Virus record (IMG/VR): IMGVR_UViG_3300014970_000025
From: a virus
Taxonomy: Duplodnaviria; Heunggongvirae; Uroviricota; Caudoviricetes
Length of the DNA stretch: 15,433 bases
Strand: one strand, 5' to 3'
In this document: positions 1,626 to 14,717 of the stretch, piece after piece
How positions within the stretch are numbered: the stretch's first letter is position 1
How the letters are laid out: each line of letters begins with the position of its first letter
Notes under the pieces: model-generated
Told to the model about the DNA's origin: nothing
Databases searched by the model: none
What the model saw: the letters and a program-made list of their open reading frames with translations, nothing else
Position numbers and translations under genes: made by a program

Positions 1626-2062
1626 TTAAGTTAACGTTACCCGCTGACGTCGATATTCTCGCGGAGAGCGATAACCCAACGCACTGTGCGGATGGTTTTC
1701 ATTGTAATGTTCGATCGCCACTGCAAGATTATGCAATGCCGTTCTTACATTCGGTTTCGGCATGAACGCGATGTAGTCTTCCTTCATCGTTTTCACGAAC
1801 CTTTCTGCAATTCCATTACTCTGAGGACTGCTGATTGCCGTTGTGCAGGGCTCCAGATTCAACTCTCTGGCGAACTGCCGTGTTTCATGCGCTCTATACG
1901 CTGAACCGTTATCTGTCAGCCACTGGATGGACTGTTCCGGTACTTTATCGCCAAAGCGTTTTTCTATCGCTCCTAACATGACATCCTGCACTGTCGCTTT
2001 ATCGTAACCTCCCGTGCTTGCGGCCCAGTCTATGGCTTCACGATCGCAACAGTCCAGGGCGA
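1626..2062 (-). pseudogene. IS3-family (IS2-like) transposase OrfB, C-terminal fragment (rve/DDE integrase core remnant)
   Basis: Minus-strand translation ...[51 protein letters not shown]...[14 protein letters not shown] matches the C-terminal end of IS3-family OrfB and resembles IS2 InsD as recalled. The frame is open only to an in-frame stop near 2063; the N-terminal part and OrfA are absent; no inverted repeats identified. Confidence 0.8.
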
Positions 2063-2338: not shown

Positions 2339-2384
2339 ATTCGTAATGCGAAGGTCGTAGGTTCGACTCCTATTATCGGCACCA
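2339..2384 (+). repeat. thrW: 3' 46 nt of tRNA-Thr(CGU) gene (anticodon loop to CCA): attachment-site core / direct repeat; not a complete tRNA
   Basis: ATTCGTAATGCGAAGGTCGTAGGTTCGACTCCTATTATCGGCACCA matches, from memory, the 3' part of E. coli thrW (T-arm GGTTCGACTCC, acceptor 3' strand, CCA). The 5' half (GCCGATATAGCTCAGTTGG...) is not present upstream, so this is a partial copy, as left at junctions of tRNA-integrated elements. Confidence 0.75.
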
Positions 2385-2989
2385 TCAAGAAAATCAATAA
2401 CTTAGCTTAACTTCTCTAAGAAATTGTATCTTCTGTTATCACTTACAAACGCCTATACGTTGTTATGGGCTTTGGTAGTGTAACACGTATGGGCGAGTAG
2501 TTCCCAGGCTCAACCTCGTAACAAGTTCCTTTGAAGCTGGAAGACGTGCCACCGTCTCTAAACCTTCTACCAAAACTCTTAGCAAGATGTTCCACACCTG
2601 GCGCGGTGTCCAATGATGCTACACGTCGTGAGACGTTGCAGAGGATAAACAGGCTAAATGATGGGAAGAGTTTTAAGTGCAATAGTGGATTAAAGCCCAC
2701 CTCTTCAAAACCTAACTTGATCGGGAAAGAATCAAGCTCTAGCACGGTTTCGTCCACCGGAGTACAACGGGTGCCTGATAAGAGAAGAACTGCTAAGACT
2801 TCATAGCTTTTGTGAAAAAGCCCTTTTTAGTGGATACGCCTACGGCGCTTATTTTTTGGTATAACCATCAAAGGCGCTTTATGGCTCCTATTGTCTTGAA
2901 AATGTATCTTTACTTGTATTGTGTTTTATGCGTAGTCTCCCTGTGTAGTATGTAACTTGTTAATTTTCATATGAATACAGAGGCAAACG

Positions 2990-3148
2990 ATGAAAAACAT
3001 TGCAGCTATCAAACGTAATAACCGCAAGATTCACGCTCGTAAGTTCCTGTCTACGCCAGAAGGAAAAGCCTGGCTAGAGCGTAAACAGAGAGAGAACGAA
3101 GAAAGAAAACTCCTTAGTGAGTTGAAATGGCTTAGAGAGGATTTCTGA
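2990..3148 (+). CDS. small basic hypothetical protein (52 aa; MKNIAAIKRNNRKIHARKFLSTPEGKAWLERKQRENEERKLLSELKWLREDF)
   Basis: ATG at 2990 preceded by GAGG about 7 nt upstream; below the 60-aa cutoff of the ORF track. Lys/Arg-rich and helical in character. No recognised family. Confidence 0.4.
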   Translation: MKNIAAIKRNNRKIHARKFLSTPEGKAWLERKQRENEERKLLSELKWLREDF

Positions 3149-3309
3149 AAATCTCCAGAACGCAACAGGGCGCATTCTAACGCTGTTTTCATTGCTTGGT
3201 ATAGGGATTATAGGTGATGTGTGTTTAATGCGTCTGTGAGCTTTTTTTGTGCCTTATTTTGCATTTTCATAATGCAGGAGAGAACACGGAAAGCCTTAAA
3301 ATTAATTAT

Positions 3310-3480
3310 TGGGGTATTTAAGGCTATTTTTAGGTGATTTAAGGGTATTAAACTTGATTTAATTGGTTAAAATATAAACAGATAGTTGTGTATCTTATTG
3401 GTTTATAAGGTTATTTTTAAATAAAGGTAAATAAAAAATAAATACCCATAAATAGCTATAAATACATCTAAATACCTATA
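3310..3480. repeat. iteron-like repeat arrays in AT-rich DNA (candidate origin or regulator-binding array)
   Basis: Three ~20-21-bp spaced units (G/T)ATTTAAGG(G/C)TAT at ~3314, 3335, 3355, with a related unit at ~3401; then TAAATA at 3428, 3439, 3449 and 3459, 3469 with exact 10-bp phasing for the last four (ATAAATACCC / ATAAATAGCT / ATAAATACAT / CTAAATACCT). Confidence 0.55.
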
Positions 3481-3491
3481 TCCCCTCCCTT

Positions 3492-3875
3492 ATGGCTAGA
3501 TTGCGAGAGGTGCTTAACGCGATTTTCAGCGCCCCCCGATCTGGAAAATCCAGAATCCCCAAATATCAGCAAGGAATTTTCTTGCGTAATCAACATCGTT
3601 TTTACCTATTAAATCATTACACAGAAAGCCTTTCTGTAATGTCTCTCACTAAACTTTCACTAAACACGAGAATGATCGGTTTTATGTCGGATCAGATGCT
3701 AGAAACAGCACCACGTCTCACAAGGGCTGTAAGCGATGAAACCAGTGTTTATGCGGGTGCAGGTCAAAATATAGGCCAAAATCCATTTAACATAATAAAC
3801 GTAATATGCACTAAGGAACACATAGAACGCCTTGAGTTGATGTATCAGGGGAAAAGTGGTGGATTTTTTACGTAG
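3492..3875 (+). CDS. hypothetical protein (127 aa), doubtful
   Basis: ORF present in track but no Shine-Dalgarno (ATG preceded by CCCCTCCCTT), composition unremarkable, no recognisable domain. May be non-coding. Confidence 0.25.
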   Translation: MARLREVLNAIFSAPRSGKSRIPKYQQGIFLRNQHRFYLLNHYTESLSVMSLTKLSLNTRMIGFMSDQMLETAPRLTRAVSDETSVYAGAGQNIGQNPFNIINVICTKEHIERLELMYQGKSGGFFT

Positions 3876-3894
3876 GAGCACGAGAGGGCTTCTA

Positions 3895-3922
3895 TTGACT
3901 TTTGTATGCTATGAAATATAAT
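3895..3922 (+). promoter_or_regulatory. near-consensus sigma-70 promoter (TTGACT-N16-TATAAT)
   Basis: TTGACT at 3895-3900 and TATAAT at 3917-3922, 16-nt spacer; directs rightward transcription into an ORF-poor region. Confidence 0.5.
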
Positions 3923-4356
3923 AGAAGGTTTTTATTTTTATGTTGATAGTGATTGCACATTAAAGATTGAAAGCAAATTTAAACATAAATTTTCAACACG
4001 TGAAAGAAACTTGTTCGACAAATAATAGATTGATTTTTAATCAACAATTTCTGATAGTGCTCTGTAAGCCGCATTACACAAGGCTTTGCGAAAGTGATGT
4101 AAAAGTGAAGAAAGCTAACATTGCTCTTTTAAGCCACTTTTCATTGAATTTTTAGTATGGAATTACATAGGGATTAATCATCAATTACATTGAATTTAAG
4201 CCTGTTTTAGATAGCAAGAAACACTTTTACTGATTATAAGAAGATCATTGCACAGATGTTATGTGATGGATGTAACGGTAGGTCACTGTGAACTATCCCC
4301 TACAGAATTTTGTTACCTATTAGATCAACTATCAAACTACAATTAAATTATCTTTT

Positions 4357-4576
4357 ATAAATTCTTTTATCTTTAAAGAATAATTATAGGGATACCCGTT
4401 GGATGTAACGATGGGTTACATCGGCAGATGACCGGGGGGGTCGGTCACGATGACCGGGGGGGGTCGGTCACGATGACTGACAATAAGATTACTTTAATAA
4501 TACTAATAATAAAACTAACATCTATAATACTAATAAATTCTTTTATCTTTTAAGAATAATTATAGGGATACCCGTT
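4357..4576. repeat. 44-bp direct repeat pair (43/44 identical) flanking a hairpin and tandem G-tract palindromes
   Basis: DR1 4357-4400 and DR2 4533-4576: ATAAATTCTTTTATCTTT(A/T)AAGAATAATTATAGGGATACCCGTT. Between them: hairpin GATGTAAC-gatgg-GTTACATC (4402-4422); tandem units GATGACCGGGGGGGTCGGTCAC (4427-4448) and GATGACCGGGGGGGGTCGGTCAC (4449-4471), each containing the palindrome TGACCG-N7-CGGTCA; partial third unit 4472-4480. Confidence 0.8.
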
Positions 4577-4581
4577 AGGGG

Positions 4582-4655
4582 AGTCTAACGACTATCCCTT
4601 AATCTATTGGCATTCGCCAGAACCTTGCACAAGTTAGAGTGTTAGTCGTTAGACT
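4582..4655. repeat. 12-bp perfect inverted repeat AGTCTAACGACT / AGTCGTTAGACT separated by 50 bp
   Basis: Arms at 4582-4593 and 4644-4655. The core CTAACG recurs at 4823-4830 (TCTAACGA) and in a bulged hairpin GCGTTACCCC-ttt-GGGGatgcTAACGC at ~4889-4914. Confidence 0.7.
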
Positions 4656-5183
4656 GCTTGTCATAACACATAGTTTTTGTTTGTTGATGTTAGTTAGTAG
4701 ATCTATGTTCGCTAATGCCGCTCACAACGAATATGTAATCTACTATGTGCAAATAGCCTACGGCTTGCGTAAGGCTAAATAGTCTTGCGCTGTGCGCAGA
4801 ACGATAATTAACTAACTACCATCTAACGATCATCAATCATCTAAAATAAATTTCTTGTGCAATGTTCTTGCGAATGCAATTAGGGTAGCGTTACCCCTTT
4901 GGGGATGCTAACGCATAACTATAGATCAACCATCAAACAGACAAAAAAGAAAAATATGGTTTAAAGATGTTAGGTAGTAGATGAGTTTCTACCGCTTAAA
5001 TCAAGCCGTAGGCGAGCAAAACAACCTCTACATAAGGGAATGTATTGTTTTTATCAAAATCTCGTCAGAATGCGTTTTAGAGCGTTTTAGCGGATAATGA
5101 AGAATAGCACCACACAGGAGAGCACGAATTGATAAGAAAAAATGTAAGCGCATGAAAAAGATCAGGTTTTTTATGAAAAGGTA

Positions 5184-5212
5184 TTGACAAATGTTTCTTT
5201 ATATGTAATAAT
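5184..5212 (+). promoter_or_regulatory. sigma-70-like promoter (TTGACA-N17-AATAAT with upstream TG)
   Basis: TTGACA 5184-5189, TGT then AATAAT 5207-5212; sits ~120 bp upstream of the first gene of a + strand gene cluster. Confidence 0.5.
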
Positions 5213-5330
5213 AGGTATTAAAGGGACAGGAAAATATTCTTATCCTCTAAGTAATTAAACCAATGCACCGCACTTTGAAGCCCAAGGCTTGCAAGGTGTC
5301 TATTTCTTTTAACTGAATAAGGAGTTTTTT

Positions 5331-5513
5331 ATGAAATGGTTTACATCGGAACGCGTCGTAGAGGCATTTAAAAAAGGTGAGCTAACACGACATCAAATAG
5401 TAATGAATCGTAATATGGCAAGGAGTCGAGGTTATCCAGAGCGTGAAAAATGCTTTGACGATGCACTAAAAATTATTGATGAACTGCGTAAGGCAGAGGC
5501 AGAGAAAGAATAA
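5331..5513 (+). CDS. small hypothetical protein (60 aa)
   Basis: Strong SD (AAGGAG, 6-nt spacing) before ATG 5331; product MKWFTSERVVEAFKKGELTRHQIVMNRNMARSRGY..., no family recognised. Confidence 0.55.
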   Translation: MKWFTSERVVEAFKKGELTRHQIVMNRNMARSRGYPEREKCFDDALKIIDELRKAEAEKE

Positions 5514-5534
5514 TAACAAGAGAAGGAGAAAACT

Positions 5535-5705
5535 ATGAGCGAAACTACAGAAAAGAAAAGACAACCACGCACTTGCTTTCATATTCCTGATGAAGTATTT
5601 CAGGTGTTATTTAAAGAAGCAAGAAGTAAACGTATCACTGTTACAGATTACATTCTTGATATGTTGAAAAGAGAGGCTGAAACACTCTCAAATAAAAGCA
5701 AGTGA
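5535..5705 (+). CDS. Arc-like ribbon-helix-helix (RHH) DNA-binding protein (56 aa)
   Basis: SD AGGAG before ATG 5535; below ORF-track cutoff. CFHIPDEVFQVLFKEARSKRITVTDYILDMLKRE aligns by eye with P22 Arc (FNLRWPREVLDLVRKVAEENGRSVNSEIYQRVMESF): beta-strand followed by two helices, RHH pattern. Confidence 0.65.
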   Translation: MSETTEKKRQPRTCFHIPDEVFQVLFKEARSKRITVTDYILDMLKREAETLSNKSK

Positions 5706-5759
5706 TTTTTATCACCATAGTAGCGCCGTAGAGCGTGATTACATACAGGAGATTTTTTA

Positions 5760-6386
5760 ATGATTAACCAACCAACTTTTACAAAACACTATGACACGTT
5801 CGATAACATCTCGAAGATTTACTCTGATAAATTGCCTCAAGGAAAAGATTTAGAGCTATTACACATTGTGCTTTATTTTCGATTTCTTAGTTATCAGGAG
5901 AACAATCTTAATTGTTACGAAAGTCACGAGACATTAGCTAAGATTTTTAAGGCTTCGGTATCAACGATTCAACGTAAGATTAAAGATCTTAAGGAGATGG
6001 GGTTATTAGATACATCCCCGCACTCTGATCCTAACATTACATCCCTTGTTTATACTGCTCTCCCTCTCACAGATGCACACATTACACCACCGGAAGACGT
6101 GAAATTCGCTGTAAACGTAGAACGGGCTGCACCTGAATATCAGGAAACATTAGAAGCGACACACTCTATTGAGCAGGAAACACAGGAATCAGCGTTCCCT
6201 GAGCGGCCCGAAATTTTTACTTGGCTTCTTTCCCTTGATAAGAAGAAACCACCACACGAAGAAACAGAAGATTTTGTAAAACGAGCATTAGATTCAAAGA
6301 ATATCTATCTTTGTGAAAATGATTTTGACTCTTTGATAATTGATCTCAAAAGTGAGAGCACAATATATGATTCACTACCCTTCTAA
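5760..6386 (+). CDS. winged-HTH DNA-binding protein, replication-initiator/organizer-like N-terminal domain (208 aa)
   Basis: SD AGGAG before ATG 5760. N-terminal LLHIVLYFRFLSYQENNLNCYESHETLAKIFKASVSTIQRKIKDLKEMGLLD follows the pattern of phage/plasmid Rep-type winged-helix domains; C-terminal half acidic and unassigned. Confidence 0.7.
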   Translation: MINQPTFTKHYDTFDNISKIYSDKLPQGKDLELLHIVLYFRFLSYQENNLNCYESHETLAKIFKASVSTIQRKIKDLKEMGLLDTSPHSDPNITSLVYTALPLTDAHITPPEDVKFAVNVERAAPEYQETLEATHSIEQETQESAFPERPEIFTWLLSLDKKKPPHEETEDFVKRALDSKNIYLCENDFDSLIIDLKSESTIYDSLPF

Positions 6387-6521
6387 GGAGAATAAATGAC
6401 TTATAACATCACAAACAATCAATAACAACAGATCGGGCAATACATATGGCAAATGCATTTATGGCGATATTCATCGTAACAATGGCATTCAGTTTTTATA
6501 ATCCACATAAAAAGAGGGAAA

Positions 6522-6905
6522 ATGGGAAGAAAGAAGAAGAACAACTTAAAACGTATTGAAAAAAACAGTAACTTCAATTCAACAAGACAACGTCCACCGA
6601 CACACACCAATAACGAAATTCCAGGGGAAGAGATAATATTTATTCTTGAAACAGAATCCCCTGAATTAAGCGATGAAGAATTAGAAATAATCCAGTCAAT
6701 GCCAGGCGTTTACTTTCGCCCAAGAACAAGAAAACAAACTATCATTTCTGATGGCACTCTGAAACGTTGGCAGCTTTTAGGGTTTAGCTCCTATCATCAT
6801 TTTTTGGGATTTAACGCTTTCAATAATTGTGTAGGTGGTGCATCGGAAGTCGATCTGATGGCTCATTTAGAAGATACATTAGCTTCTAACAAACGTTCTA
6901 ACTAA
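6522..6905 (+). CDS. hypothetical protein (127 aa), basic N-terminus and acidic middle
   Basis: SD GAGGG before ATG 6522; no family recognised. Confidence 0.5.
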   Translation: MGRKKKNNLKRIEKNSNFNSTRQRPPTHTNNEIPGEEIIFILETESPELSDEELEIIQSMPGVYFRPRTRKQTIISDGTLKRWQLLGFSSYHHFLGFNAFNNCVGGASEVDLMAHLEDTLASNKRSN

Positions 6906-6920
6906 TAAAATGATGGGCGT

Positions 6921-7166
6921 ATGTATAAGCGCCCAATGAAAATATTCAAAAAAGGAAAAATAATGATTGGCTATATTCAAGAAACACAATTATTTCAGAT
7001 GATCCTGTCTGATGCAAAAAACTATGCTGAGTTAATCCGACTGGCAAAAGAAACAGAAGACTACGAAGCATTAGAGCGTTATCGTGATGAAGTGCTGACG
7101 CTCAAGACACCTTTTAACATCGTATTGAATATGATTAATGATGCATTACAAGGAGAAGCCGCATAA
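6921..7166 (+). CDS. small hypothetical helical protein (81 aa; alternative start 6963 gives 67 aa)
   Basis: Internal ATG 6963 has the better SD (AAGGAAAAATAATG). Stop overlaps the next start (TAATG at 7164-7168), suggesting translational coupling. Confidence 0.45.
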   Translation: MYKRPMKIFKKGKIMIGYIQETQLFQMILSDAKNYAELIRLAKETEDYEALERYRDEVLTLKTPFNIVLNMINDALQGEAA

Positions 7167-7474
7167 TGGAAGAAGATATTAGCAATGCAATGGAACAACT
7201 TTTAGATCTGACTATCTCACTACAAACAAGAATAAATCAAGCCTATTCAGATTTATGTGATTACACGCTCTCTCAATGCGTTATTAGCTTAATGAAGGTG
7301 AATGTAAGCCTTGACGATTTTATCTCTCTGGTGAGCGATTTAGAGCTATCAGAGGACGATGCAAAACAGTGTAATCAAATCATCACAGACATCGCCACCA
7401 CGTTAAAGGTTGCAAGTGAAGAGATTCAGCAATTAGTAGATGATTTAGCAAAAAGTGCTATTTTCTCTAAATGA
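7166..7474 (+). CDS. acidic helical hypothetical protein (102 aa)
   Basis: Start overlaps the upstream stop; product rich in D/E/L/I; no family recognised. Confidence 0.55.
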   Translation: MEEDISNAMEQLLDLTISLQTRINQAYSDLCDYTLSQCVISLMKVNVSLDDFISLVSDLELSEDDAKQCNQIITDIATTLKVASEEIQQLVDDLAKSAIFSK

Positions 7475-7487
7475 TAATGAAAATTAT

Positions 7488-7516
7488 TTGCATTTATAAT
7501 GATTTTGTTATATAAT
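7488..7516 (+). promoter_or_regulatory. near-consensus sigma-70 promoter (TTGCAT-N17-TATAAT)
   Basis: TTGCAT 7488-7493, TATAAT 7511-7516, plus a second TATAAT at 7495-7500; followed by ~0.9 kb without any + strand ORF above ~25 codons. Confidence 0.5.
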
Positions 7517-8401
7517 AATTTTAGGGGTAGATAAAAAGATTTTAGTTGGTGTTAATCCTTCTACTGTCATAAATCCCTGCATATGGAAGGTGATAGCCTC
7601 AAAGGTTGAGTGGCATTAACCTCTAACAAATATTACCTTCCATCTCTCAAGAAGTTTTAGAATAATCATAACTCCCTCTTTGATTGTTGATTGTTTCTAC
7701 GTTGTGTTGATGAATGTTGTTAGGCATTGTGCTTAATTTTGATAAAAGCGGGTAGGTGTTATCTCCTTGCCCTTCCCGCTCTTATTTTTCATCTATGCTT
7801 ATCCTAAAGCTCCTTATTTTGTCCGAAAACATTAAAGAGCCTTACACTGATAGTTATATTTTATAACTATTTACTAACATCATTAAACTCTTATTTAATG
7901 ACGGAAGTTAGTAACAGAATAATCTATTAAGTTGTTGTCAAAAAACTATCATCTGCATAGCGTTAGCCGCAAGTAGAGAGAGTTTAGCTAAGAATGGTGC
8001 AATAAACTTTGGAAATATTGATAGCAAAACGGGTTTTATAGAATGCGGATCTATAAGCTTTGGTTGTAAAAACGATTTTCTGAAACGGTAGATTACTGTT
8101 GGTGTAGTTAATCCTATTAAAATTTGATCTGTGAGTAGATTAGAATTGGAATAGTGATTCCTTAAAGCCTTACTTTGTTGCATCCACAGCAAAAACAGGC
8201 AGCGGTTTAGCCCCCGCATCGAATAGCAGGATCGTAGATTCCAAAGGGTTGGCCCCTCCTAAGAGCCAATTTCTCCTGCGGTCCTGTTATTCACCCTTAA
8301 CATATCTCTAAGCGTATTTATAAAAGTATTCTTAGAGATAACGTTAAACCTCCTCAAAGTTGACTTATCACAATATGTATTTTGCCCGATACAAAATAAA
8401 T

Positions 8402-8452
8402 AAGCCCCTTGCTATTGTTGATTGAACCTCTTATAGCCTGGGGCTTTTTATT
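8402..8452 (+). terminator. stem-loop followed by T-run (possible intrinsic terminator or RNA 3' structure)
   Basis: AAGCCCC (8402-8408) pairs with GGGGCTT (8440-8446), followed by TTTTATT; loop is long (31 nt) so classification is tentative. Confidence 0.3.
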
Positions 8453-8480
8453 ACTCGGAACATAACGGAATCGTTATTTT

Positions 8481-8690
8481 ATGAAACAAGAAATTATCCT
8501 GAAATATGGCAATGAAAAGTTAACACTAACTGAGGATGTGTTGAATGCTACAGCCTACGCGCTTGGCATCACTCCTACAGAATTAAAGAAACAGTGTGAA
8601 CGTCTTTATAAGGCTGACAGCAATAAACCATCTCACCAAGATTTGATTAATGCTAAAGCTCAACAAATCAAACAATCTAAGGAAAAATAA
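8481..8690 (+). CDS. small hypothetical protein (69 aa), possible HTH-like segment
   Basis: Stop overlaps the start of the next gene (TAATG at 8688-8692). Segment ATAYALGITPTELKKQ is HTH-like. No family assigned. Confidence 0.5.
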   Translation: MKQEIILKYGNEKLTLTEDVLNATAYALGITPTELKKQCERLYKADSNKPSHQDLINAKAQQIKQSKEK

Positions 8691-9064
8691 TGGCTATTTT
8701 AAAATTAAGCGATGTTTTCCCACATCGTAAAAGCATCACTGACGTAGTGAGCTATGCAACCGACCCTTACGCGGCTGTAGAAAGCAAAAAATTTGCAGCA
8801 CTTGCACAAGATGTAACGTGCGGCGACCTCATTGATTCATCCGGCGCTAAATATGTTAGCGGCGCTGATGTTCTTGTCGTTGTGTCTGACTTCGTAACTG
8901 CTGATTCAAATAAAACAGTTAACGTGCTTCGTGCTAATGCCGGACTCGTTTGCATCAAAGCTGATGCCCTGAATGCCGAAGGCGCTGTAAAAGAAGCTGC
9001 TATTGCAGCTCTCGCTGCTAAAGGCTTCCAGCTTGAAGGCTTCCACTCTGTTTTCACATCTTAA
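8690..9064 (+). CDS. putative head decoration protein (lambda gpD/SHP-like position and size, 124 aa)
   Basis: SD AAGGA; lies immediately upstream of an E-like major capsid gene, as D does in lambdoid head modules; size typical; Ala/Val/Gly-rich. Assignment rests mainly on synteny and composition. Confidence 0.45.
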   Translation: MAILKLSDVFPHRKSITDVVSYATDPYAAVESKKFAALAQDVTCGDLIDSSGAKYVSGADVLVVVSDFVTADSNKTVNVLRANAGLVCIKADALNAEGAVKEAAIAALAAKGFQLEGFHSVFTS

Positions 9065-9080
9065 GAAGGAATAAATAATA

Positions 9081-10109
9081 ATGATTATCGGAAATGAAGT
9101 GGTTGATCTTGCTCCACTGTTTGAATTAAACGATACCCGTAACTATCTGCTGTCTACTCTGGATTTTACTGATCCTGTGCCTGTAGAAAGTCACAAAGTG
9201 GCTGTTTCCCAGCTTATCGAGAGCAATGAATCTCTGTTCAACCATCCTACAAGCCGTTTTAGCTCTGAGCATAACGTTACTAAACGTGAAAACGCGGAAG
9301 AGTGGCTGATTGAAATTCCTTATTTCCTGCGTGAAGACCTGATCACACCGCAGGACGTGCAAGGCAAACGAAAAGCCGGAAGCTCTATTGAAGAAACACT
9401 GCCGGATCTGTATGCGGAATATATCGCTAAACACAATGTTGCATTCCAGCGCACTAAAGAAAGCATCCTCGCGGCTTCTCTGTTCTCTGGCAAGACGCAT
9501 ACCCCGAAAACTGACGATGTTCTGATCGACTACAGCACTCTGTTCGGTGTGTCTCCAATGACTGCAACCGTTGACGCATCCAGCACCAACACAATGACTG
9601 TGTTCAAACAGTTTGACCAGATGCATACGGATATGATTGCTAAAGCACAAAGCCAGGCTGCAACCATTGAGCGTGTTGTTGTGTTCTGTAAGCCTGCGGC
9701 ATTCAACGCTATTCGTTACAGCGTTGGCATGGTTAATGCGTTCCAATATGCAAGCCCTGTAGACGATGCAAACGTGGTGTTTAATGTGCGCTCTCTGCTG
9801 CCTGGTGTAACTACTTTCACCATTCCAGGAACTAACATTGATCTGATCAAAGTGACTGATCCGCTGCTGCTGGCACATATGACCGCAGACGCTGTAGCTG
9901 TTCCTAAATTCGCTAAAGGTGCAGGTGTTTACCAATCTATTTATGGCGCTCCTTCCAGTTCCTTCGATCTGCTGTCTCAAGGCGCTAAAGAGTATTACAG
10001 CTATGCTTTCGAATCGAATCGCGGCGACGCAGTGCACGTAGTGACCGAGAATAGCTCGCTTGTGGTTAACCACGGTGTTGGCTTCTCTGTGCAGATCACA
10101 GTAGCGTAA
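9081..10109 (+). CDS. phage major capsid protein, lambda gpE-like family (342 aa)
   Basis: SD AAGGAA; length nearly identical to lambda gpE (341 aa); C-terminus ...VVNHGVGFSVQITVA resembles gpE ...DPDEFVSVQLA and internal ERVVVFCKPAAFNAIRYS resembles gpE NIIVFDPKGWALFRSF (by recall). Confidence 0.8.
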   Translation: MIIGNEVVDLAPLFELNDTRNYLLSTLDFTDPVPVESHKVAVSQLIESNESLFNHPTSRFSSEHNVTKRENAEEWLIEIPYFLREDLITPQDVQGKRKAGSSIEETLPDLYAEYIAKHNVAFQRTKESILAASLFSGKTHTPKTDDVLIDYSTLFGVSPMTATVDASSTNTMTVFKQFDQMHTDMIAKAQSQAATIERVVVFCKPAAFNAIRYSVGMVNAFQYASPVDDANVVFNVRSLLPGVTTFTIPGTNIDLIKVTDPLLLAHMTADAVAVPKFAKGAGVYQSIYGAPSSSFDLLSQGAKEYYSYAFESNRGDAVHVVTENSSLVVNHGVGFSVQITVA

Positions 10110-10273
10110 AAAGTGTTAAAGACGTTCCCCTACGTCTGGAAATAATCGGGGGGCAATAAGGGTAAGGAGATTAACTAACCTGTAGGCGCAAATACAGTAA
10201 CGAATCTCTTTGCCCTTTTTGTTTTTCTACTGTCTACAAATCCAAATAAAAATATATATGTGAGAGAAAACCA

Positions 10274-10471
10274 ATGAACACAGAAAATTCACAGGCATTA
10301 ATTCTTAAATCTGTAAAAGAACTGGCAGCTATTAGCGATGACTCAATAATCAATGTCAGTGCCTTATGCAGAATGCTTTCAATTGATGCAAATAATGTGC
10401 GGCAGCGTGTGTTTCAGACCGGGTGCAGCACTTTCGAAGCAATCCAATATTATTGTTCTAAAAAACAATAA
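10274..10471 (+). CDS. small hypothetical protein (65 aa)
   Basis: Weak SD; segment VSALCRMLSIDANNVRQR is HTH-like; uncertain. Confidence 0.35.
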   Translation: MNTENSQALILKSVKELAAISDDSIINVSALCRMLSIDANNVRQRVFQTGCSTFEAIQYYCSKKQ

Positions 10472-10505
10472 CAAACAACAATCATAATACAGGGAAACAA
10501 TCAGT

Positions 10506-12347
10506 ATGTTAGAACTAAACGTGGCACGCCTCTCGAACGTTGTCACCTTCGAAGTTAACCGACCATCATTAGAGAAAGCAAAAGCAGAAGTAGAAAAACT
10601 TCGTAAACAAATGGCGGCGGTGAAAGATATAGAATTGCGTGTTAAGACACATAAACAATCAACCGCTAAAGCAAAAAAAGACGTAGACGATATTGCTAAA
10701 AAGCAAGCACAGGCAGATAAAGCCAATGCTAAAGCACAATTAGCCGCTCAACGTGTAGTTGCAAGAGAACAAAAAGCCCTGGCAGCACGGAAAGAGAAGG
10801 CTGAATTAAAGCTTTTAGACGTTGGAGCAAGCATTAGCGCATTGCACCGTCTTTCTGTAGCGGAACAATATAAAGCTATTGCACAGGCTAGAGAAATTGC
10901 CCTCCAATATGAAAGAGGCGCTATTAGTCTGGCACGTATGAATAGCCAAATGAAACGCCTACAACAGCAACAACGTAAGATTAATGGCAATCGTAACGCT
11001 CACGCTAAAGCCTATGCACCTGTTAAGGGTAGCGGGAGTATTGGCGGCGGTGCTGCGGCTGTTATGCTGGGTGGCTTAGGCGCTGGCGCTGCATATATGG
11101 CTATGAGCAAAGCTTCTGAATTTGTTACTAACAGCTTTGCGAATGCTGAAACGCTGGGAGAATTGTATAGCCGTGCGAAGCTGGGCGGTGTAGACGTTAA
11201 CCAGATGAACAATATTGAGCAATGGGCGTATAAAAACGGCGTTGATTCAATGATGGGGGATCAAGGTAAACGTAAGTATCTCGATCAGATGAAAGATGTG
11301 CGTGAGCGTGCAACCAAAAGCTATGATGAGGCTGAATATGTAGTCGATAAAAAAACAGGCAAAGGTGAATGGAAGGGCGGCGATAGCGGCATCAACGTTC
11401 TCATGAACGAAGGATTCTTAACTAAGAAAGATTTGAAAGACTTTGCTGATAATCCTGCTGGCCTGGTTAGTAAAGCAGTTCAGGGAATGGTAGCTAAAGG
11501 CTATTCAGATGCACAAATCGGTAGTCGTCTTGAAGACTTGGGCGATGATTTGATGCTCACCTCTAAATACTGGACACGCTCCGCTAAAGAAGTGGAACAA
11601 TCAGCACGAGAACAACGAGAATCAGGGCGCTGGGTAACACAGGCACAACAGGAAAGCGTTATTAAATTCCGTGAACTGAATAATGCACTTAGTGGGCTTT
11701 CTGACTCACAAGGGATCGCCTTTGTTGATGGCTTTATGAAATCTCTTGATCCGAAAGTGATTGAAGAGTTTAAAAAGAGCATGGTTGCAATGCTGCCAAT
11801 GTTTACCAAATTAGGCGAGGCTATCGGCGGATTGGTTAACGCTGTAATGAAAGCAATCAACTGGCTGATGAAAAACGACGAGAAGACGGCAGCTATTCAG
11901 AAGAATTTAGGTGATGCACCGCCACTATCTAACGAAGGAATGAAGCAGAATCTTTCTAATCTCACTCCTGATCAATATAAAGGCGCTGGCACCGGAACAA
12001 CTAAGCCAGATAACAGCAATTCCCTGGTTAACACTATTAAAAGCTGGTTTATGCCAGAAGAAACGGTAGGTGGGGCGCAGGCTGTAAATCAATACAGTCT
12101 CGAAGGACAAAACATTGCAAATCTGAAACAGAGTGCAGCACAACAAGCTTTCAAGGCTCCTTCTTACACCTTTGCACCTGTTATTAACTTCAATCCAGAA
12201 TTACAAGTAAATGCAGAAGTGCCGCTAACTATCGAATCAGACACCGGACGATTGAGCGAATTTATCGACTTCAAATCAAAGGCATCCTCCGCTGAGTTTA
12301 GCAAGCTATTAACGCTGGGTGTTATGTCAGGCGGGTCAACCTATTAA
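10506..12347 (+). CDS. tape-measure-like protein: long Lys/Ala/Gln coiled-coil N-terminus, Gly-rich hydrophobic segment, large C-terminal region (613 aa)
   Basis: Residues ~20-170 are heptad-like charged helix (EKAKAEVEKLRKQ...KAQLAAQRVVAREQKALAARKEKAELK), followed by GSGSIGGGAAAVMLGGLGAGAAYMAMS (membrane-like). This architecture is typical of phage tail tape-measure or ejection proteins. No enzymatic motif seen. Confidence 0.5.
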   Translation: MLELNVARLSNVVTFEVNRPSLEKAKAEVEKLRKQMAAVKDIELRVKTHKQSTAKAKKDVDDIAKKQAQADKANAKAQLAAQRVVAREQKALAARKEKAELKLLDVGASISALHRLSVAEQYKAIAQAREIALQYERGAISLARMNSQMKRLQQQQRKINGNRNAHAKAYAPVKGSGSIGGGAAAVMLGGLGAGAAYMAMSKASEFVTNSFANAETLGELYSRAKLGGVDVNQMNNIEQWAYKNGVDSMMGDQGKRKYLDQMKDVRERATKSYDEAEYVVDKKTGKGEWKGGDSGINVLMNEGFLTKKDLKDFADNPAGLVSKAVQGMVAKGYSDAQIGSRLEDLGDDLMLTSKYWTRSAKEVEQSAREQRESGRWVTQAQQESVIKFRELNNALSGLSDSQGIAFVDGFMKSLDPKVIEEFKKSMVAMLPMFTKLGEAIGGLVNAVMKAINWLMKNDEKTAAIQKNLGDAPPLSNEGMKQNLSNLTPDQYKGAGTGTTKPDNSNSLVNTIKSWFMPEETVGGAQAVNQYSLEGQNIANLKQSAAQQAFKAPSYTFAPVINFNPELQVNAEVPLTIESDTGRLSEFIDFKSKASSAEFSKLLTLGVMSGGSTY

Positions 12348-12357
12348 TCATCACTGT

Positions 12358-12373
12358 GGGGCTGTTTAGCCCC
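12358..12373 (+). terminator. GC-rich hairpin GGGGCT-gttt-AGCCCC with weak U-tract
   Basis: Perfect 6-bp stem, 4-nt loop, 10 nt after the stop of the 613-aa gene; followed by CTTAAAT rather than a strong T-run. Confidence 0.35.
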
Positions 12374-12394
12374 CTTAAATAAGGATTACAAATT

Positions 12395-13072
12395 ATGGCA
12401 ATGGGTCCGTTAACCATTGGTCGCCCGACTGAGGCGAAAATCAACAGCACAAGCAACGATAGCAACGGTAGAACAACCAAAGGGGGTAACGGCTTTGCGA
12501 TCATTGCCTCTAACCTCGGCAGTGGTGCAAATGCTGCTTACAATGACTACCAGGCATTATCATTTGATAGCGTGGAATCGACGAAAGTTAGCAGAAATGC
12601 GGACGTTACAAGCTATGCCGTCGAATCAGGATCAGAAGTTAGTGATCATGTTCAAATACGGAATAACAAGTTCACATTACAAGGGCGTATCTCTGAAACC
12701 GTATTGAAGCTCAATCCCGATATGATTAAGAATGCGGGAATTAACGGCAATAGACGTATGCTTATGCTTGAATACCTAAATCAGTTGATGGACAGTCGCC
12801 AACCTTTCCTACTTGTCACTGAGTTAAAAAATTATGACAACGTTGTGTTAGTTGGCATGTCTTACGAAGAAGAAGCAAGCGAAAGTATATTGTTTACTCT
12901 TGATTTTGAGCAAATTCGTCTTGTCTCTAAGGCCACCACTAATGCTATTGCTGTAAAAACAGCACCAAATAAATCTGTAGGGGGACAGGTTAAAATGCAG
13001 GTAAATACAACAGAACAGAAAAATCAAAAAAGCCCAGGGCAAGACGTTGTAACACCAGTATTTAAACAATAG
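12395..13072 (+). CDS. hypothetical protein (225 aa), Ser/Thr/Asn-rich N-terminus; possible virion-associated protein
   Basis: SD AAGGA 9 nt upstream; follows the tape-measure-like gene; no family recognised. Confidence 0.6.
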   Translation: MAMGPLTIGRPTEAKINSTSNDSNGRTTKGGNGFAIIASNLGSGANAAYNDYQALSFDSVESTKVSRNADVTSYAVESGSEVSDHVQIRNNKFTLQGRISETVLKLNPDMIKNAGINGNRRMLMLEYLNQLMDSRQPFLLVTELKNYDNVVLVGMSYEEEASESILFTLDFEQIRLVSKATTNAIAVKTAPNKSVGGQVKMQVNTTEQKNQKSPGQDVVTPVFKQ

Positions 13073-13153
13073 CCTTAAACGCCTATGAAACGCTCTGTAA
13101 CGATGTAATTATAAAAGAGGCTACCAATCTATGTTGAAGCCTCCTTATTACGT

Positions 13154-14488
13154 CTATGGCGTTGTTTTACGCCTTAAATTTGATTTTTTATTGATTGATA
13201 AGCCTTTCTCTATTTCAGGGTAGCGTAAAAGCTCAATATATTTTTTAAGCTCTACTGGAGAAGCTGCATTTTTGCTATATGTGCGGAATGTTTCTGTATT
13301 GCCGCGTGTATGGCCCAGGAGAAGGGCGATCCTGTCTTCTGGAATTTGATTTCGATCAAGAAGCTGTGCTACTCCGTGTCTCAGAGAATGAAACACTTTC
13401 CTTTCTGTTCCCTTTTCCCCTAAAGCCTTTCGTTTAGCTCTTGTAAATCGTTGTGTATGCCACGTAGAGCGTTTACCGTCAGCACGTTCTGTAATGCTGG
13501 CGTGATAGAACAAAAAGCCATTGTGAGGCTTTTCACGCAGCGACAACACCAACGGAGTGATAAGGCTATGTACAGGCACAACACGTGCCGCTGCTTTCGT
13601 CTTTCCCTGTGTGATTTCAAAACACAGCACACCTTCGATCTCTTTCACATCGTCTATTGTGAGACTTGCTATCTCATTGATCCGCATACCTGTATATAAA
13701 CCGATAAGACACAAAGCCGTCATTTCTTTGTTTTCTGCTGAATTACCGGAAAATACTTGCAACACCTGCAATAGCTCTTTGTTAGAAAATGCCTCGTAGC
13801 TCTCTCTACTTTGTGCCACATCAAGCCTATGCCCTCGCCAGGGGGAGAGCGCCCTTTCTGGCGCATCGTGGTAACGTGATGAAGCTAACTCCCATAGCTG
13901 GGCCATTGGGCTGATATAATTTGCAATTGATTGTTGTGAAAGAGTTTTTTGCATGTGTTCAATCCAGCCTGTAACAGTGGTGCGGCTTACGTCTTGCAAT
14001 GCAATATCAGGCTTTTTACGGTAGGAGAGAAACATCTCTACCGCTTTTCTTGCCTTAGCTAAAGTGGCTGGCTTCTTCTTCGTGCTGTTAATTGTCAGGT
14101 AGATTTCAAGAATTTTAAGCAATGACGGACACGAAGACGCTGTATCTTGCATTCTGGTAGCTGTTTTGGCGTATTTAGCCTTACTGCGTAACAGTTCCAG
14201 CGTGTTTTCTATTGTGCTGTTTACAGGGGCAACACTCTCCCGTAAGCAATGGTATTCATCTGCAATCTGATCACGCTTTCTACGTGCAACACGAAGATTA
14301 CTTGTGTGCAGACTTCTGACAAACGTCCTTTTTCCTTCAAAAAAGGGCTGCATATACACAGGCAGCGTGATCCTTAAATAGTAGTTACCGTAAGAATCAC
14401 AGATTAAGTATTGGTTAGGCTTGTATCTCATAAAATCTCCGGCTAAAGTGTCGGAGCGTTTGTAATGTGAAAATTGATTGTGACGCAT
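13154..14488 (-). CDS. tyrosine site-specific recombinase (phage/P4-type integrase, 444 aa; alternative start at 14431)
   Basis: Catalytic-domain motifs TGMRINE (Arg), HSLRHGVAQ (His-x-x-Arg), LLGHTRGNTETFRTYSK (His, Tyr nucleophile); N-terminal YLRITLP...FFEGKRTFVRSL typical of tRNA-site integrases; lies adjacent to a tRNA-Thr-derived repeat. Confidence 0.9.
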   Translation of the reverse strand: MRHNQFSHYKRSDTLAGDFMRYKPNQYLICDSYGNYYLRITLPVYMQPFFEGKRTFVRSLHTSNLRVARRKRDQIADEYHCLRESVAPVNSTIENTLELLRSKAKYAKTATRMQDTASSCPSLLKILEIYLTINSTKKKPATLAKARKAVEMFLSYRKKPDIALQDVSRTTVTGWIEHMQKTLSQQSIANYISPMAQLWELASSRYHDAPERALSPWRGHRLDVAQSRESYEAFSNKELLQVLQVFSGNSAENKEMTALCLIGLYTGMRINEIASLTIDDVKEIEGVLCFEITQGKTKAAARVVPVHSLITPLVLSLREKPHNGFLFYHASITERADGKRSTWHTQRFTRAKRKALGEKGTERKVFHSLRHGVAQLLDRNQIPEDRIALLLGHTRGNTETFRTYSKNAASPVELKKYIELLRYPEIEKGLSINKKSNLRRKTTP

Positions 14489-14528
14489 AGAAAATGATTA
14501 TTTTTCTATAAGATTCAATCAATTAGTA

Positions 14529-14591
14529 ATGGTCGTAGGTGATGGCATTAACACGAGATTAATCGAGTGTTTTACTCCTATTATCGCACCA
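14529..14591 (+). pseudogene. degenerate tRNA-Thr 3'-end copy (ptwF-like att remnant)
   Basis: GGTCGTAGGT (14531-14540) ... ACTCCTATTATCGCACCA (14574-14591) matches the thrW 3' end except for a ~33-bp insertion replacing the T-loop and one missing G; same orientation as the 2339-2384 copy. Confidence 0.6.
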
Positions 14592-14717
14592 TTAAAATCA
14601 AAGAGTTACCCCATATTTAAATACACCACGTTTCCTCCTGTGCCGCATTTGTGCCATTGTAACCTTGGCAATTCATCAAAATACTGTTCTGACATCAGGC
14701 AGTGCAGGTGCAGCTAT

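Follow-up and report, generated by a model that had tools for sequence, protein, structure and literature searches.

What does a promoter set in front of two very small genes and a winged-helix gene do for the element that carries it? The question is raised by positions 5184-6386 of a 15,433-nt stretch of viral DNA (IMG/VR record IMGVR_UViG_3300014970_000025; Caudoviricetes), the whole of which is called the window here. An earlier note on this DNA described these positions as a module of three open reading frames (ORFs) behind a sigma-70 promoter. It took the 56-aa product (ORF56) for an Arc-like ribbon-helix-helix (RHH) repressor and the 208-aa product (ORF208) for a Rep-like winged-helix-turn-helix (HTH) protein, drew a comparison with the immI region of phage P22, pointed to palindromes upstream as candidate operators, and suggested that the whole could be a lysogeny or induction switch. 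We favor a different answer, to which we would assign a probability of roughly 0.6: the module is a promoter-driven replication control operon of the cop-rep type, serving an integrative island that occupies most of the window, and the origin of that island is the palindrome block at 4427-4471.

Results

The module is conserved and its small genes are under constraint

All features of the three-ORF module were found where they had been described (Table 1). ORF60, which encodes a 60-aa protein, and a homologue of ORF208 occur in this order in 25 loci besides the window, and in 21 of these a homologue of ORF56 lies between them; in the other four (L016-L018 and L022), its place is taken by another small ORF, RHH-like where it was read (L016). 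An AGGAG-type Shine-Dalgarno sequence precedes each of the three genes, 21 nt separate ORF60 from ORF56, and 54 nt separate ORF56 from ORF208. The genes of the module are presumably cotranscribed.

Promoter-like sites are not enriched as a class between positions 2800 and 8600 (20 were found versus 22.4 expected), and the sequence pattern alone therefore proves nothing about the promoter at 5184. Support for it comes instead from conservation across 25 related loci. The -35 hexamer TTGACA is unchanged in 25 of 25, and although the -10 region exists in three versions (TGtAATAAT, TGcAATAAT, and TGgTAAAGT), the TGn element and the 17-nt spacer are kept in all of them. Which version a locus carries is independent both of its ORF208 allele and of its RHH type (see below). 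In the leader, 12 sequences could be aligned over the predicted hairpin; 10 of them have an unchanged stem, and in the remaining two an indel displaces it. Since the loop alone varies, the hairpin gains no support from covariation; it is possibly an attenuator, a terminator, or an RNA stability element.

Twenty distinct DNA versions of ORF60 were found, none of them disrupted, and the ratio of nonsynonymous to synonymous substitution rates (dN/dS) is 0.15 to 0.22. For ORF56, ten distinct versions are all intact, and dN/dS is about 0 to 0.21 over five pairs. Judged by this constraint, both ORF60 and ORF56 are real genes. Homologues of ORF60 were found in E. coli and E. albertii only and are unnamed. 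The protein has no family match in Pfam, PHROGs, or PADLOC and no significant sequence match in the PDB (the best, at an E value of 0.1, being RNA recognition motif proteins); its sole NCBIfam match, with 17 bits against a cutoff of 100, is below threshold and gives a hint of RNA binding. A toxin-antitoxin pair made up of ORF60 and the RHH protein was considered and rejected, as there is no toxin-like partner and no match to a PADLOC defense family. In relatives, the initiator gene is followed by a full 89-aa ORF (for example, at 10604-10873 of L004), of which the window retains a short remnant (Table 1).

The 208-aa protein resembles replication initiators

Pfam, PHROGs, structure prediction, and fold matches agree in making ORF208 a Rep-like winged-HTH protein, as the earlier note had supposed. 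Its Pfam match is to HTH_36 (E = 3.7e-7), with weaker matches to other HTH families, and no match to Rep_1, Rep_2, or HUH families was found. The ten best PHROGs matches all fall in the DNA metabolism category, and eight of them are replication initiation families (E = 1e-6 to 2e-3). The family is a narrow one; an exhaustive search of 1.8 billion cluster representatives returned 37 related clusters.

The structure prediction that had been suggested for this protein yielded a confident winged HTH. The AlphaFold2 (AF2) model, built from 25 sequences, has a mean predicted local distance difference test score (pLDDT) of 75, rising above 90 in the N-domain. The regions that can be distinguished are the winged HTH (residues ~10 to 105), a ALPLTDAHITPP hinge (100 to 111), a disordered acidic linker (115 to 146), and a three-helix domain (149 to 199); pLDDT falls below 50 in residues 115 to 146 and again in the C-terminal tip (204 to 208). 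The solved folds nearest to the N-domain are those of RepA_N initiators (PDB entries 4pql, 4pt7, 4pta, and 5kbj; probability, 0.96 to 1.0; E = 5e-3 to 8e-2), behind which rank regulators of the MarR, PadR, and ArsR families. A viral structure library gave 51 matches at E <= 1e-3; the functional names among these are replication protein, initiator, replisome organizer, and RepA family, including a "Replication initiator A family protein." The N-domain is represented by four alleles in 27 loci, the window carrying allele 1, and the C-domains of the family are mutually unrelated.

ORF208 alleles and upstream repeats vary together

The palindromes TGACCG-N7-CGGTCA that the earlier note had seen at 4427-4471 are indeed present, and we regard them as the iterons of the window. 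The block that they form is 64% GC and is set between tracts of 21% and 14.5% GC. Each of the four ORF208 alleles was found to be paired with an iteron type of its own. Allele 1 goes with the motif GGGT[AC]GGTCA. Of the island loci with this allele, 12 include upstream sequence, and all 12 have the motif, as against none of the 13 loci with other alleles. Five copies of GTAACG-N3-5-TTAC accompany allele 2 (3/3 loci), AGGAAAT-N-TTCC accompanies allele 3 (4/4 loci), and allele 4 is accompanied by five copies of ACAGAA-N3-TGTTA (6/6 loci). Over the 25 island loci the association is perfect, and the arrays lie ~0.9 to 1.3 kb upstream, beside tracts of 14 to 21% GC.

A k-mer test gave a similar picture. 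The k-mers specific to alleles 2, 3, and 4 are found mainly in the N-domain coding region and in a block ~0.9 to 1.2 kb upstream of ORF60, with further small clusters in the case of allele 3. Allele 1 shows no upstream cluster because its iterons differ between sub-alleles, and its link to the iterons is based on the motif count, not on the k-mer test. Simple clonal linkage would not explain the association, given that the DNA between the two blocks (4580-4800) is 93 to 100% shared across alleles in almost all loci and given that neither the promoter version nor the RHH type is tied to the ORF208 allele.

The iterons lie 713 to 757 nt upstream of the -35 hexamer of the promoter. Flanked by AT-rich DNA and more than 700 nt away, they fit the iterons of an origin and not operators of the 5184 promoter, and together with the adjoining AT-rich DNA they likely form the replication origin of the island. 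No DnaA boxes were found near them. Two other placements of the origin were considered and rejected. Iterons in or next to the initiator gene, as in lambda O or the RepA_N plasmids, are not apparent, no convincing repeats being found there in any allele; the AT-rich block at 3300-3480 is accessory, occurs in some islands only, and is present or absent without relation to the ORF208 allele. The larger accessory block to which these positions belong (3150-3900, likewise in some islands only) contains a 21% GC region, in which positions 3430-3480 carry ~10-nt TAAATAC repeats and positions 3312-3477 carry inverted repeats of the GGGTATTTAAGG type.

Iterons of more than one type can occur side by side. 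Those that the window holds in addition to its tandem pair are listed in Table 1. In L008 (IMG/VR 2619619133_000006), all four types are present (4, 3, 3, and 2 copies) ~1.27 to 1.79 kb upstream of ORF60. This composite origin region may be a route to the use of several initiator alleles, or it may be a record of serial recombination.

Table 1. Positions of the module, the candidate origin, and other features of the window
Feature	Position	Strand	Remarks
Integrative island	about 2366-14593		~12.2 kb; borders are an att-like repeat
Left att-site core ACTCCTATTATCGGCACCATC	2366-2386	+	3' end of tRNA-Thr (thrW-type) fragment; left border of island
Single L005-type allele-1 iteron GGTAGGTCACTGTGAACTA	4277-4295	+	Older type; same repeat is tandem in L005
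Orphan allele-4-type iteron TACAGAATTTTGTTAC	4301-4316	+	Five copies in each of six allele-4 loci
AT-rich tract	4320-4400		21% GC; includes copy 1 of 44-nt direct repeat D1 (4357-4400)
Orphan allele-2-type iteron TGTAACGATGGGTTACA	4404-4420	+	Five copies in each of three allele-2 loci
Two tandem semi-palindromic iterons, GATGACCGGGGGGG(G)TCGGTCAC	4427-4448 and 4449-4471	+	22/23 nt; proposed sites of ORF208 N-domain
Very AT-rich tract	4478-4560		14.5% GC; candidate DNA-unwinding element; runs into D1 copy 2 (4533-4576)
Self-complementary element	4560-4900		340 nt; between candidate origin and promoter
Sigma-70 promoter TTGACA-N17-AATAAT	5184-5212	+	11/12 consensus positions; TG extended -10
Leader hairpin	5270-5310	+	13-bp stem (5270-5299), then U-rich run; within 118-nt leader
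ORF60	5331-5513	+	60 aa; conserved family of 58- to 66-aa proteins
ORF56	5535-5705	+	56 aa; type A RHH; proposed autoregulator/copy-control repressor of operon
ORF208	5760-6386	+	208 aa; proposed replication initiator (AF2, Pfam, PHROGs, Foldseek)
Remnant of 89-aa winged-HTH-like ORF	6397-6426	+	9 codons; 240-nt in-frame deletion in window
Three small ORFs, then ORF-poor kilobase, then gene for 124-aa protein			Gene order after the module
Major capsid protein gene, capsid-E type			Downstream of 124-aa gene; PF03864, E = 9e-19
Tape-measure-like protein gene			613 aa; 3' of capsid gene; phrog_16051, E = 4e-32
Tail protein gene	12395-13072		225 aa; last in rightward series; gp249 homologue
Integrase gene	13154-14488	-	
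Right att-site core ACTCCTATTATCG-CACCATT	14574-14593	+	Right border, just past integrase gene

A predicted ribbon-helix-helix protein of three types

The AF2 model of ORF56 (single sequence) has a pLDDT of 89 and shows an extended segment to residue 18 followed by helices at residues 19 to 31 and 36 to 54. In a Foldseek search of the PDB, the top 50 matches are mostly RHH proteins, with probabilities of up to 0.98; these include Arc, CopG, AtaR, KacA, VapB, AmrZ, PutA, NikA, and ORF56 of pRN1. The E values are all 0.086 or higher, which is a consequence of the protein being so small. Sequence matches stayed below threshold (PHROGs Arc-like repressor, E = 0.011; VapB12 in the PDB, E = 0.52). 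Types A and B of the protein (described below) match no RHH family in Pfam, and type C gives an E value of 0.22 against a FitA-like RHH family. The claim of an Arc-like RHH protein is thereby upheld at the level of the predicted fold (AF2 and Foldseek), with no curated sequence family to match, and we regard the Arc/CopG-type fold as a well-supported prediction and not as family membership.

Three versions of the gene appear to be interchangeable in the slot: type A, carried by the window; type B, ~43% identical to A; and type C, the RHH-patterned ORF that was read in L016, one of the four allele-3 loci without an ORF56 homologue. The k-mer test confined RHH-type-specific DNA to the RHH gene itself and its 40-nt 3' spacer. 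A type-specific operator at the promoter was rejected, since the promoter versions ignore the RHH type and there is no type-specific DNA at that site. The palindromes that had been put forward as RHH operators fare no better in this role: those at 4427-4471 covary with the ORF208 allele and not with the RHH type, and the repeat at 4582-4655, also present as described, is common to all four ORF208 alleles and all RHH types. Types A and B have in common two of three predicted outward-facing strand residues (R-x-C/Y-x-H) and, for that reason, could use a common operator. CopG, encoded upstream of repB, limits RepB synthesis in pMV158; by analogy, ORF56 probably limits the synthesis of the initiator.

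An SSB-like C-terminal tip

Despite their unrelated C-domains, 115 of 156 sequences of the ORF208 family end in -PF, and many of the members lacking this ending are short or partial sequences. The most common endings are YDSLPF (48 sequences, and the form found in the window), YDSIPF (39), and DFDIPF (21), in addition to seven other variants. The tip is acidic-hydrophobic, follows a disordered linker, and closes the protein with -[IL]PF at its free C terminus. [quoted passage not shown] Some relatives of ORF208 end in EDFDIPF or DDFDIPF, where SSB ends in DFDDDIPF. The two proteins differ in what bears the tip, which in SSB is an oligonucleotide/oligosaccharide-binding (OB) fold and here is a winged HTH that would bind double-stranded DNA. 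By analogy with SSB, the tip could conceivably bring PriA, the chi subunit of the clamp loader, or primase to the origin. Recruitment of this kind would explain how an island that encodes no replication enzymes might be replicated.

In the first 50 kb of phage muut, one of the phages described in the next section, acidic tails ending in F are found only on the annotated small subunit of ribonucleotide reductase and on an unnamed 136-aa protein (29940-30350 of L031) that ends in ...DPSRDDDSEF. The latter might be the single-strand DNA-binding protein of the phage, and it bears on whether the initiator tip mimics the SSB of the host or that of a helper.

Phages carry DNA-binding domains of the island type

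When ORF208 was compared with 50,697 phage records by tblastn, a single match was returned, in the Justusliebigvirus phage inny. In the protein concerned, inny_184 (367 aa), residues 1 to 162 share 96% identity with an island allele-2 protein, and the winged HTH that comes second shares 91% with island allele 3. The C-domain, for which a Pfam scan was run on inny_184 only, matches MUG113 (PF13455) with 25.0 bits (cutoff, 22.3) and T5orf172 (PF10544) with 17.6 bits (cutoff, 20); it also matches annotated homing endonucleases. This nuclease domain is 92% identical in phage muut and 71% identical in phage Mt1B1_P17, and inny_184, muut gp094, and Mt1B1_P17 gp053 each consist of two island-type N-domains and a C-terminal nuclease domain. 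The first domain of gp053 is 100% identical to island allele 4 over 100 residues, while that of gp094 is an allele carried by none of these island loci. A metagenomic Justusliebigvirus contig (L011), 98.6% identical to inny, has the same two-domain start in a gene cut by the contig end, and its first domain is 86% identical to allele 1 of the window. The identities between phage domains and island alleles are 86% for allele 1, 92 to 96% for allele 2, 91% for allele 3, and 100% for allele 4. All four carriers (inny, muut, Mt1B1_P17, and the contig) belong to the Stephanstirmvirinae.

The phages inny and muut and the contig L011 also have an island type-B RHH gene directly upstream of the chimera gene, and from the RHH ribosome-binding site to the ALPLTDAHITPP hinge their DNA is 96 to 98% identical to that of the island. 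The phage DNA examined contains none of the iteron motifs in their strict form, save for one chance-level match to the type-2 motif in 50 kb.

T5orf172 belongs to the GIY-YIG nuclease superfamily (PMC8263062). In Gp88 (Odn) of phage ICP1, a T5orf172 domain is fused to an N-domain 42% identical to the RepA_N domain of the PLE satellite, and Odn cuts the PLE origin in an iteron-dependent manner (PMC8263062). Going by their domain matches, the phage chimeras described here have the Odn architecture, that is, an initiator DNA-binding domain joined to a T5orf172-type nuclease, and by analogy they may target the iterons of the island. If they do, phages and island would meet in nature, and the iteron site would be vital to the island.

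The island and its surroundings

The 20-nt repeat ACTCCTATTATCG(G)CACCAT is present at both ends of the island, and a tRNA-Thr 3' sequence is matched exactly at 2360-2384. Related islands adjoin thrW in E. coli RM9088 and PE144, and relatives lie at thrW, beside proA. Similar DNA was found in 712 of 5,426 complete E. coli genomes, 78 of which hold at least 80% of the query (4300-7500); a scan of species-representative genomes gave two loci only. With the exception of the integrase gene, all called genes run rightward from the 5184 promoter.

Against Pfam and PHROGs, the island ORFs gave matches only to an integrase, a capsid-E-type capsid protein, a tape-measure-like protein, and the HTH_36 protein, and several small ORFs matched nothing; no terminase, portal, primase, helicase, or polymerase was matched among the ORFs searched. 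Also unmatched by the island ORFs in these searches were the hallmark sets of P4 (taken as Sid, Psu, Delta, and the alpha primase), of PICI (AlpA with primase-rep and a small terminase), of cfPICI (an HK97 capsid with protease, portal, and adaptors), and of PLE. By these matches, the gene content of the island is satellite-like yet falls outside the P4, PICI, cfPICI, and PLE sets.

The nearest phage kin of the structural proteins are found among the Stephanstirmvirinae, which are lytic, rV5/phi92-like myophages ~150 kb in size. Identity to the counterparts in these phages is 23 to 26% for the capsid protein and 28% for the tape-measure-like protein, and the 225-aa tail protein shares 54% amino acid identity with gp249 of phage ukendt, whose gene comes after the tape-measure gene. 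As far as gene content can tell, the island is probably an E. coli satellite and a parasite of large lytic phages, and the Stephanstirmvirinae may be its helpers. In the literature searched, we found no description of this island or of satellites of these phages.

Several other observations on the island and its flanks are recorded here. The presence of capsid, tape-measure-like, and tail proteins (8690-13072) in an island that has neither terminase nor portal suggests that helper virions might be remodeled, in capsid size or in tail length. Just past the stop codon of the capsid gene, 74 nt (10103-10176) are ~92% identical to many Stephanstirmvirinae genomes; the counterpart of these nucleotides in phage ukendt is inside gp249, the island homologue of which is located elsewhere. 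To the left of the island, positions 1-2340 hold an AraC-family gene (832-1584) and a fragment of an IS3-family transposase gene (1626-1991, minus strand). Of the tRNA, the window has the 3' part only, so that there may be a tandem array at thrW in which this island comes second. Between the left att site and a 52-aa ORF (2990-3148), positions 2400-3000 are 98 to 100% identical among relatives, which exceeds the identity of the coding genes. This segment gave no folding signal; it contains overlapping unannotated ORFs of 104 aa (minus strand) and 91 aa (plus strand), which are also present in L014.

Two further segments are conserved and poor in ORFs. The self-complementary element between the candidate origin and the promoter has minimum free energy z-scores of -7.3 (plus strand) and -8.4 (minus strand), with 30-nt arms at 4604-4633 and 4854-4883. 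It is 93 to 100% identical in almost all relatives over positions 4580-4800 and variable (64 to 100%) over positions 4800-4900. The repeat at 4582-4655 is part of this element. Its 18-nt arms (4582-4599 and 4638-4655) form an inverted repeat that is 89% matched, and it is present in 16 loci, with 93 to 100% conservation in 15 of them and 81% in L005. The element could act as a structured RNA or else as a site in single-strand DNA, for example one for primosome assembly. The other segment, a second ORF-poor kilobase at 7474-8481, lies inside the operon. It is 95 to 100% conserved up to 8100 and variable (71 to 100%) from 8100 to 8480, and its folding signal is moderate (z-scores to -5.2 on the minus strand, at 7700-8000). 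Searches of the ORF-poor stretches against Rfam identified no known RNA family and gave two chance-level matches only.

Discussion

In the current study, we asked what purpose the module at 5184-6386 serves, and the answer that we favor is control of replication. According to this reading, a strong sigma-70 promoter would drive a 118-nt leader with a hairpin and then ORF60, the RHH protein, and ORF208. The N-terminal winged HTH of ORF208 would recognize the iterons at 4427-4471 and act there as the initiator at the island origin, while the acidic-hydrophobic tip, which follows the linker and the helical domain, would recruit replication proteins of the host or of a helper to the origin. The RHH protein, encoded immediately upstream in the operon, would limit synthesis of the initiator. 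A wider proposal, which we advance tentatively and with somewhat less than even confidence, is that a family of E. coli satellites, ~12 kb in size and not described before, parasitizes virulent rV5/phi92-like phages and has this operon and origin as its replicon, that the initiator tip mimics that of SSB and so borrows a replisome for the iterons, and that the phages retaliate with Odn-like nucleases bearing two DNA-binding domains taken from satellite initiators, in some cases along with the RHH gene.

A number of observations weigh against replication control. The fold of ORF56 was modeled from a single sequence, and each of its Foldseek E values is 0.086 or higher. Outside the RHH gene and its 40-nt 3' spacer, no DNA was found to covary with the RHH type, and autoregulation at the 5184 promoter gains no direct support from this test. 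The loci are related and the covarying blocks are only ~1 kb apart, so that linkage contributes to the association of alleles with iterons. Furthermore, the iterons do not adjoin the initiator gene, which is ~1.3 kb away; the promoter is at a distance of ~0.7 kb. ORF208 matches HTH_36 in Pfam and not RepA_N. The island has no helicase, primase, or polymerase among the ORFs searched, and its replication would therefore depend entirely on factors of the host or of a helper. Finally, the tip found in the window, YDSLPF, is less SSB-like than DFDIPF and also resembles the hexapeptides that bind the beta clamp, of which QLSLPL is an example.

Against these points must be set the difficulties of the alternatives. 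In the switch envisaged by the earlier note, the RHH protein would repress the promoter through the palindromes, and ORF208 would be the regulated effector or a transcription factor. The predicted RHH fold does resemble Arc, a strong promoter needs some restraint, and no other repressor candidate emerged from the Pfam and PHROGs searches of the island. Nevertheless, the palindromes track the ORF208 allele and not the RHH type, and they lie more than 700 nt upstream of a promoter whose version tracks neither. No antirepressor family was found by Pfam and PHROGs among ten island ORFs, there is no divergent gene beside the promoter, and the downstream gene encodes an HTH_36 winged HTH whose named structural kin are replication initiators. 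We therefore consider a switch of the immI type improbable, whether for lysogeny or for induction.

A role in packaging also strikes us as improbable, even though it would account for several features. ORF208 would in that case be a specificity factor like a small terminase, the iteron block would be a pac site, and the tip would contact the large terminase of the helper. Satellites often redirect packaging, and this island has no recognizable small terminase of its own; small terminases, for their part, have an HTH at the N terminus and bind the large terminase by a C-terminal tail, and a nuclease aimed at a pac site would likewise serve a phage well. Yet no terminase appears among the PHROGs and Pfam matches, in which eight PHROGs families are replication initiators; RepA_N initiators head the fold matches, origins typically have AT-rich tracts next to their iterons, and the tip matches that of SSB and not any known terminase motif. 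We give still less credence to a device for transcription or partition, in which the repeats would be a centromere-like or silencing site, bound by ORF208 or the RHH protein, and no replication would start from them. It is true that some RHH proteins, ParG and omega among them, bind arrays of repeats, that winged-HTH proteins are mostly transcription factors, and that MarR, PadR, and ArsR are among the fold matches of ORF208. However, the repeats do not track the RHH type, no partition ATPase was found by Pfam and PHROGs, an integrated island needs no partition system, and a -PF tip behind a disordered linker is not a feature of regulators of the MarR or PadR type.

Replication control has closer parallels in known systems. 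As in the cop-rep cassette copG-repB of pMV158, and in the ORF56-replicase pair of pRN1, an RHH gene of ~50 codons stands immediately upstream of the initiator gene and behind the same promoter, and the structures of both CopG (1b01 and 1ea4) and pRN1 ORF56 (2k9i and 3ft7) are among the matches of the window's ORF56. The resemblance to pMV158 has its limits. RepB is a rolling-circle nuclease of the HUH class, whereas ORF208 is a winged HTH and a proposed iteron binder; an extra gene, ORF60, precedes the RHH gene here; and CopG has an operator that overlaps its promoter, whereas at the 5184 promoter none specific to an RHH type was found. In the case of the RepA_N plasmid initiators (RepA of pSK41 and pTZ2162), which provide the best solved-structure match to the N-domain, the likeness extends to architecture; Schumacher et al. 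are said to have reported in 2014 that these proteins join a DNA-binding N-domain to a C-domain that recruits partners, and ORF208 is built alike. Unlike them, ORF208 has no Pfam RepA_N match, is much shorter, has as its C-domain a 50-residue three-helix bundle with a linear motif, and would act at an origin outside its own gene. As for P22, the top matches of ORF56, whose predicted fold is the same, include the Arc structures 1myl, 1par, and 1baz, but the genetic context differs, and no antirepressor or Mnt partner was found among the island ORFs searched. A cop-rep cassette combined with an iteron origin like that of the PLE satellite is, in our opinion, the closer analogy.

The likeness to PLE and ICP1 deserves comment. 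In both cases a satellite (here a probable one) of a virulent myophage has winged-HTH alleles of an initiator (here a proposed one) paired with semi-palindromic iterons, and a phage gene joins a nuclease domain of the T5orf172 type to a DNA-binding domain captured from the initiator. The E. coli host and the Stephanstirmvirinae lineage are nevertheless unrelated to the Vibrio cholerae system. The chimeras described here have two tandem domains of different alleles, with 86 to 100% identity to those of the island as opposed to 42% for Odn, and three of the phages captured the RHH gene as well. Moreover, unlike PLE, the island has capsid, tape-measure-like, and tail protein genes of its own, and its proposed initiator ends in an SSB-tip-like motif. 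The classes of component (RHH regulators, initiators that act at iterons, and counter-nucleases of the Odn type) are all known; what is unusual is the SSB-tip-like motif and the two-headed phage nucleases.

If these proposals are correct, an unrecognized family of phage satellites is widespread in E. coli. The rV5/phi92-like phages are used in phage therapy, and islands that interfere with them may affect the outcome of treatment. An initiator with an SSB-like tip would be a compact means of recruiting the replisome without encoding any enzyme, and the four initiator domains, four iteron types, and several phage chimeras would constitute a ready-made system in which specificity can be tested. 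The phage proteins would represent a second origin-directed antisatellite nuclease system, the first in E. coli, and one that drives the diversification of initiator and iteron alleles. An arms race waged with origin-directed nucleases is so far known from one pair of Vibrio phage and satellite; a second one, in the chief model organism of bacteriology, would show that conflicts of phage and satellite lead to it generally.

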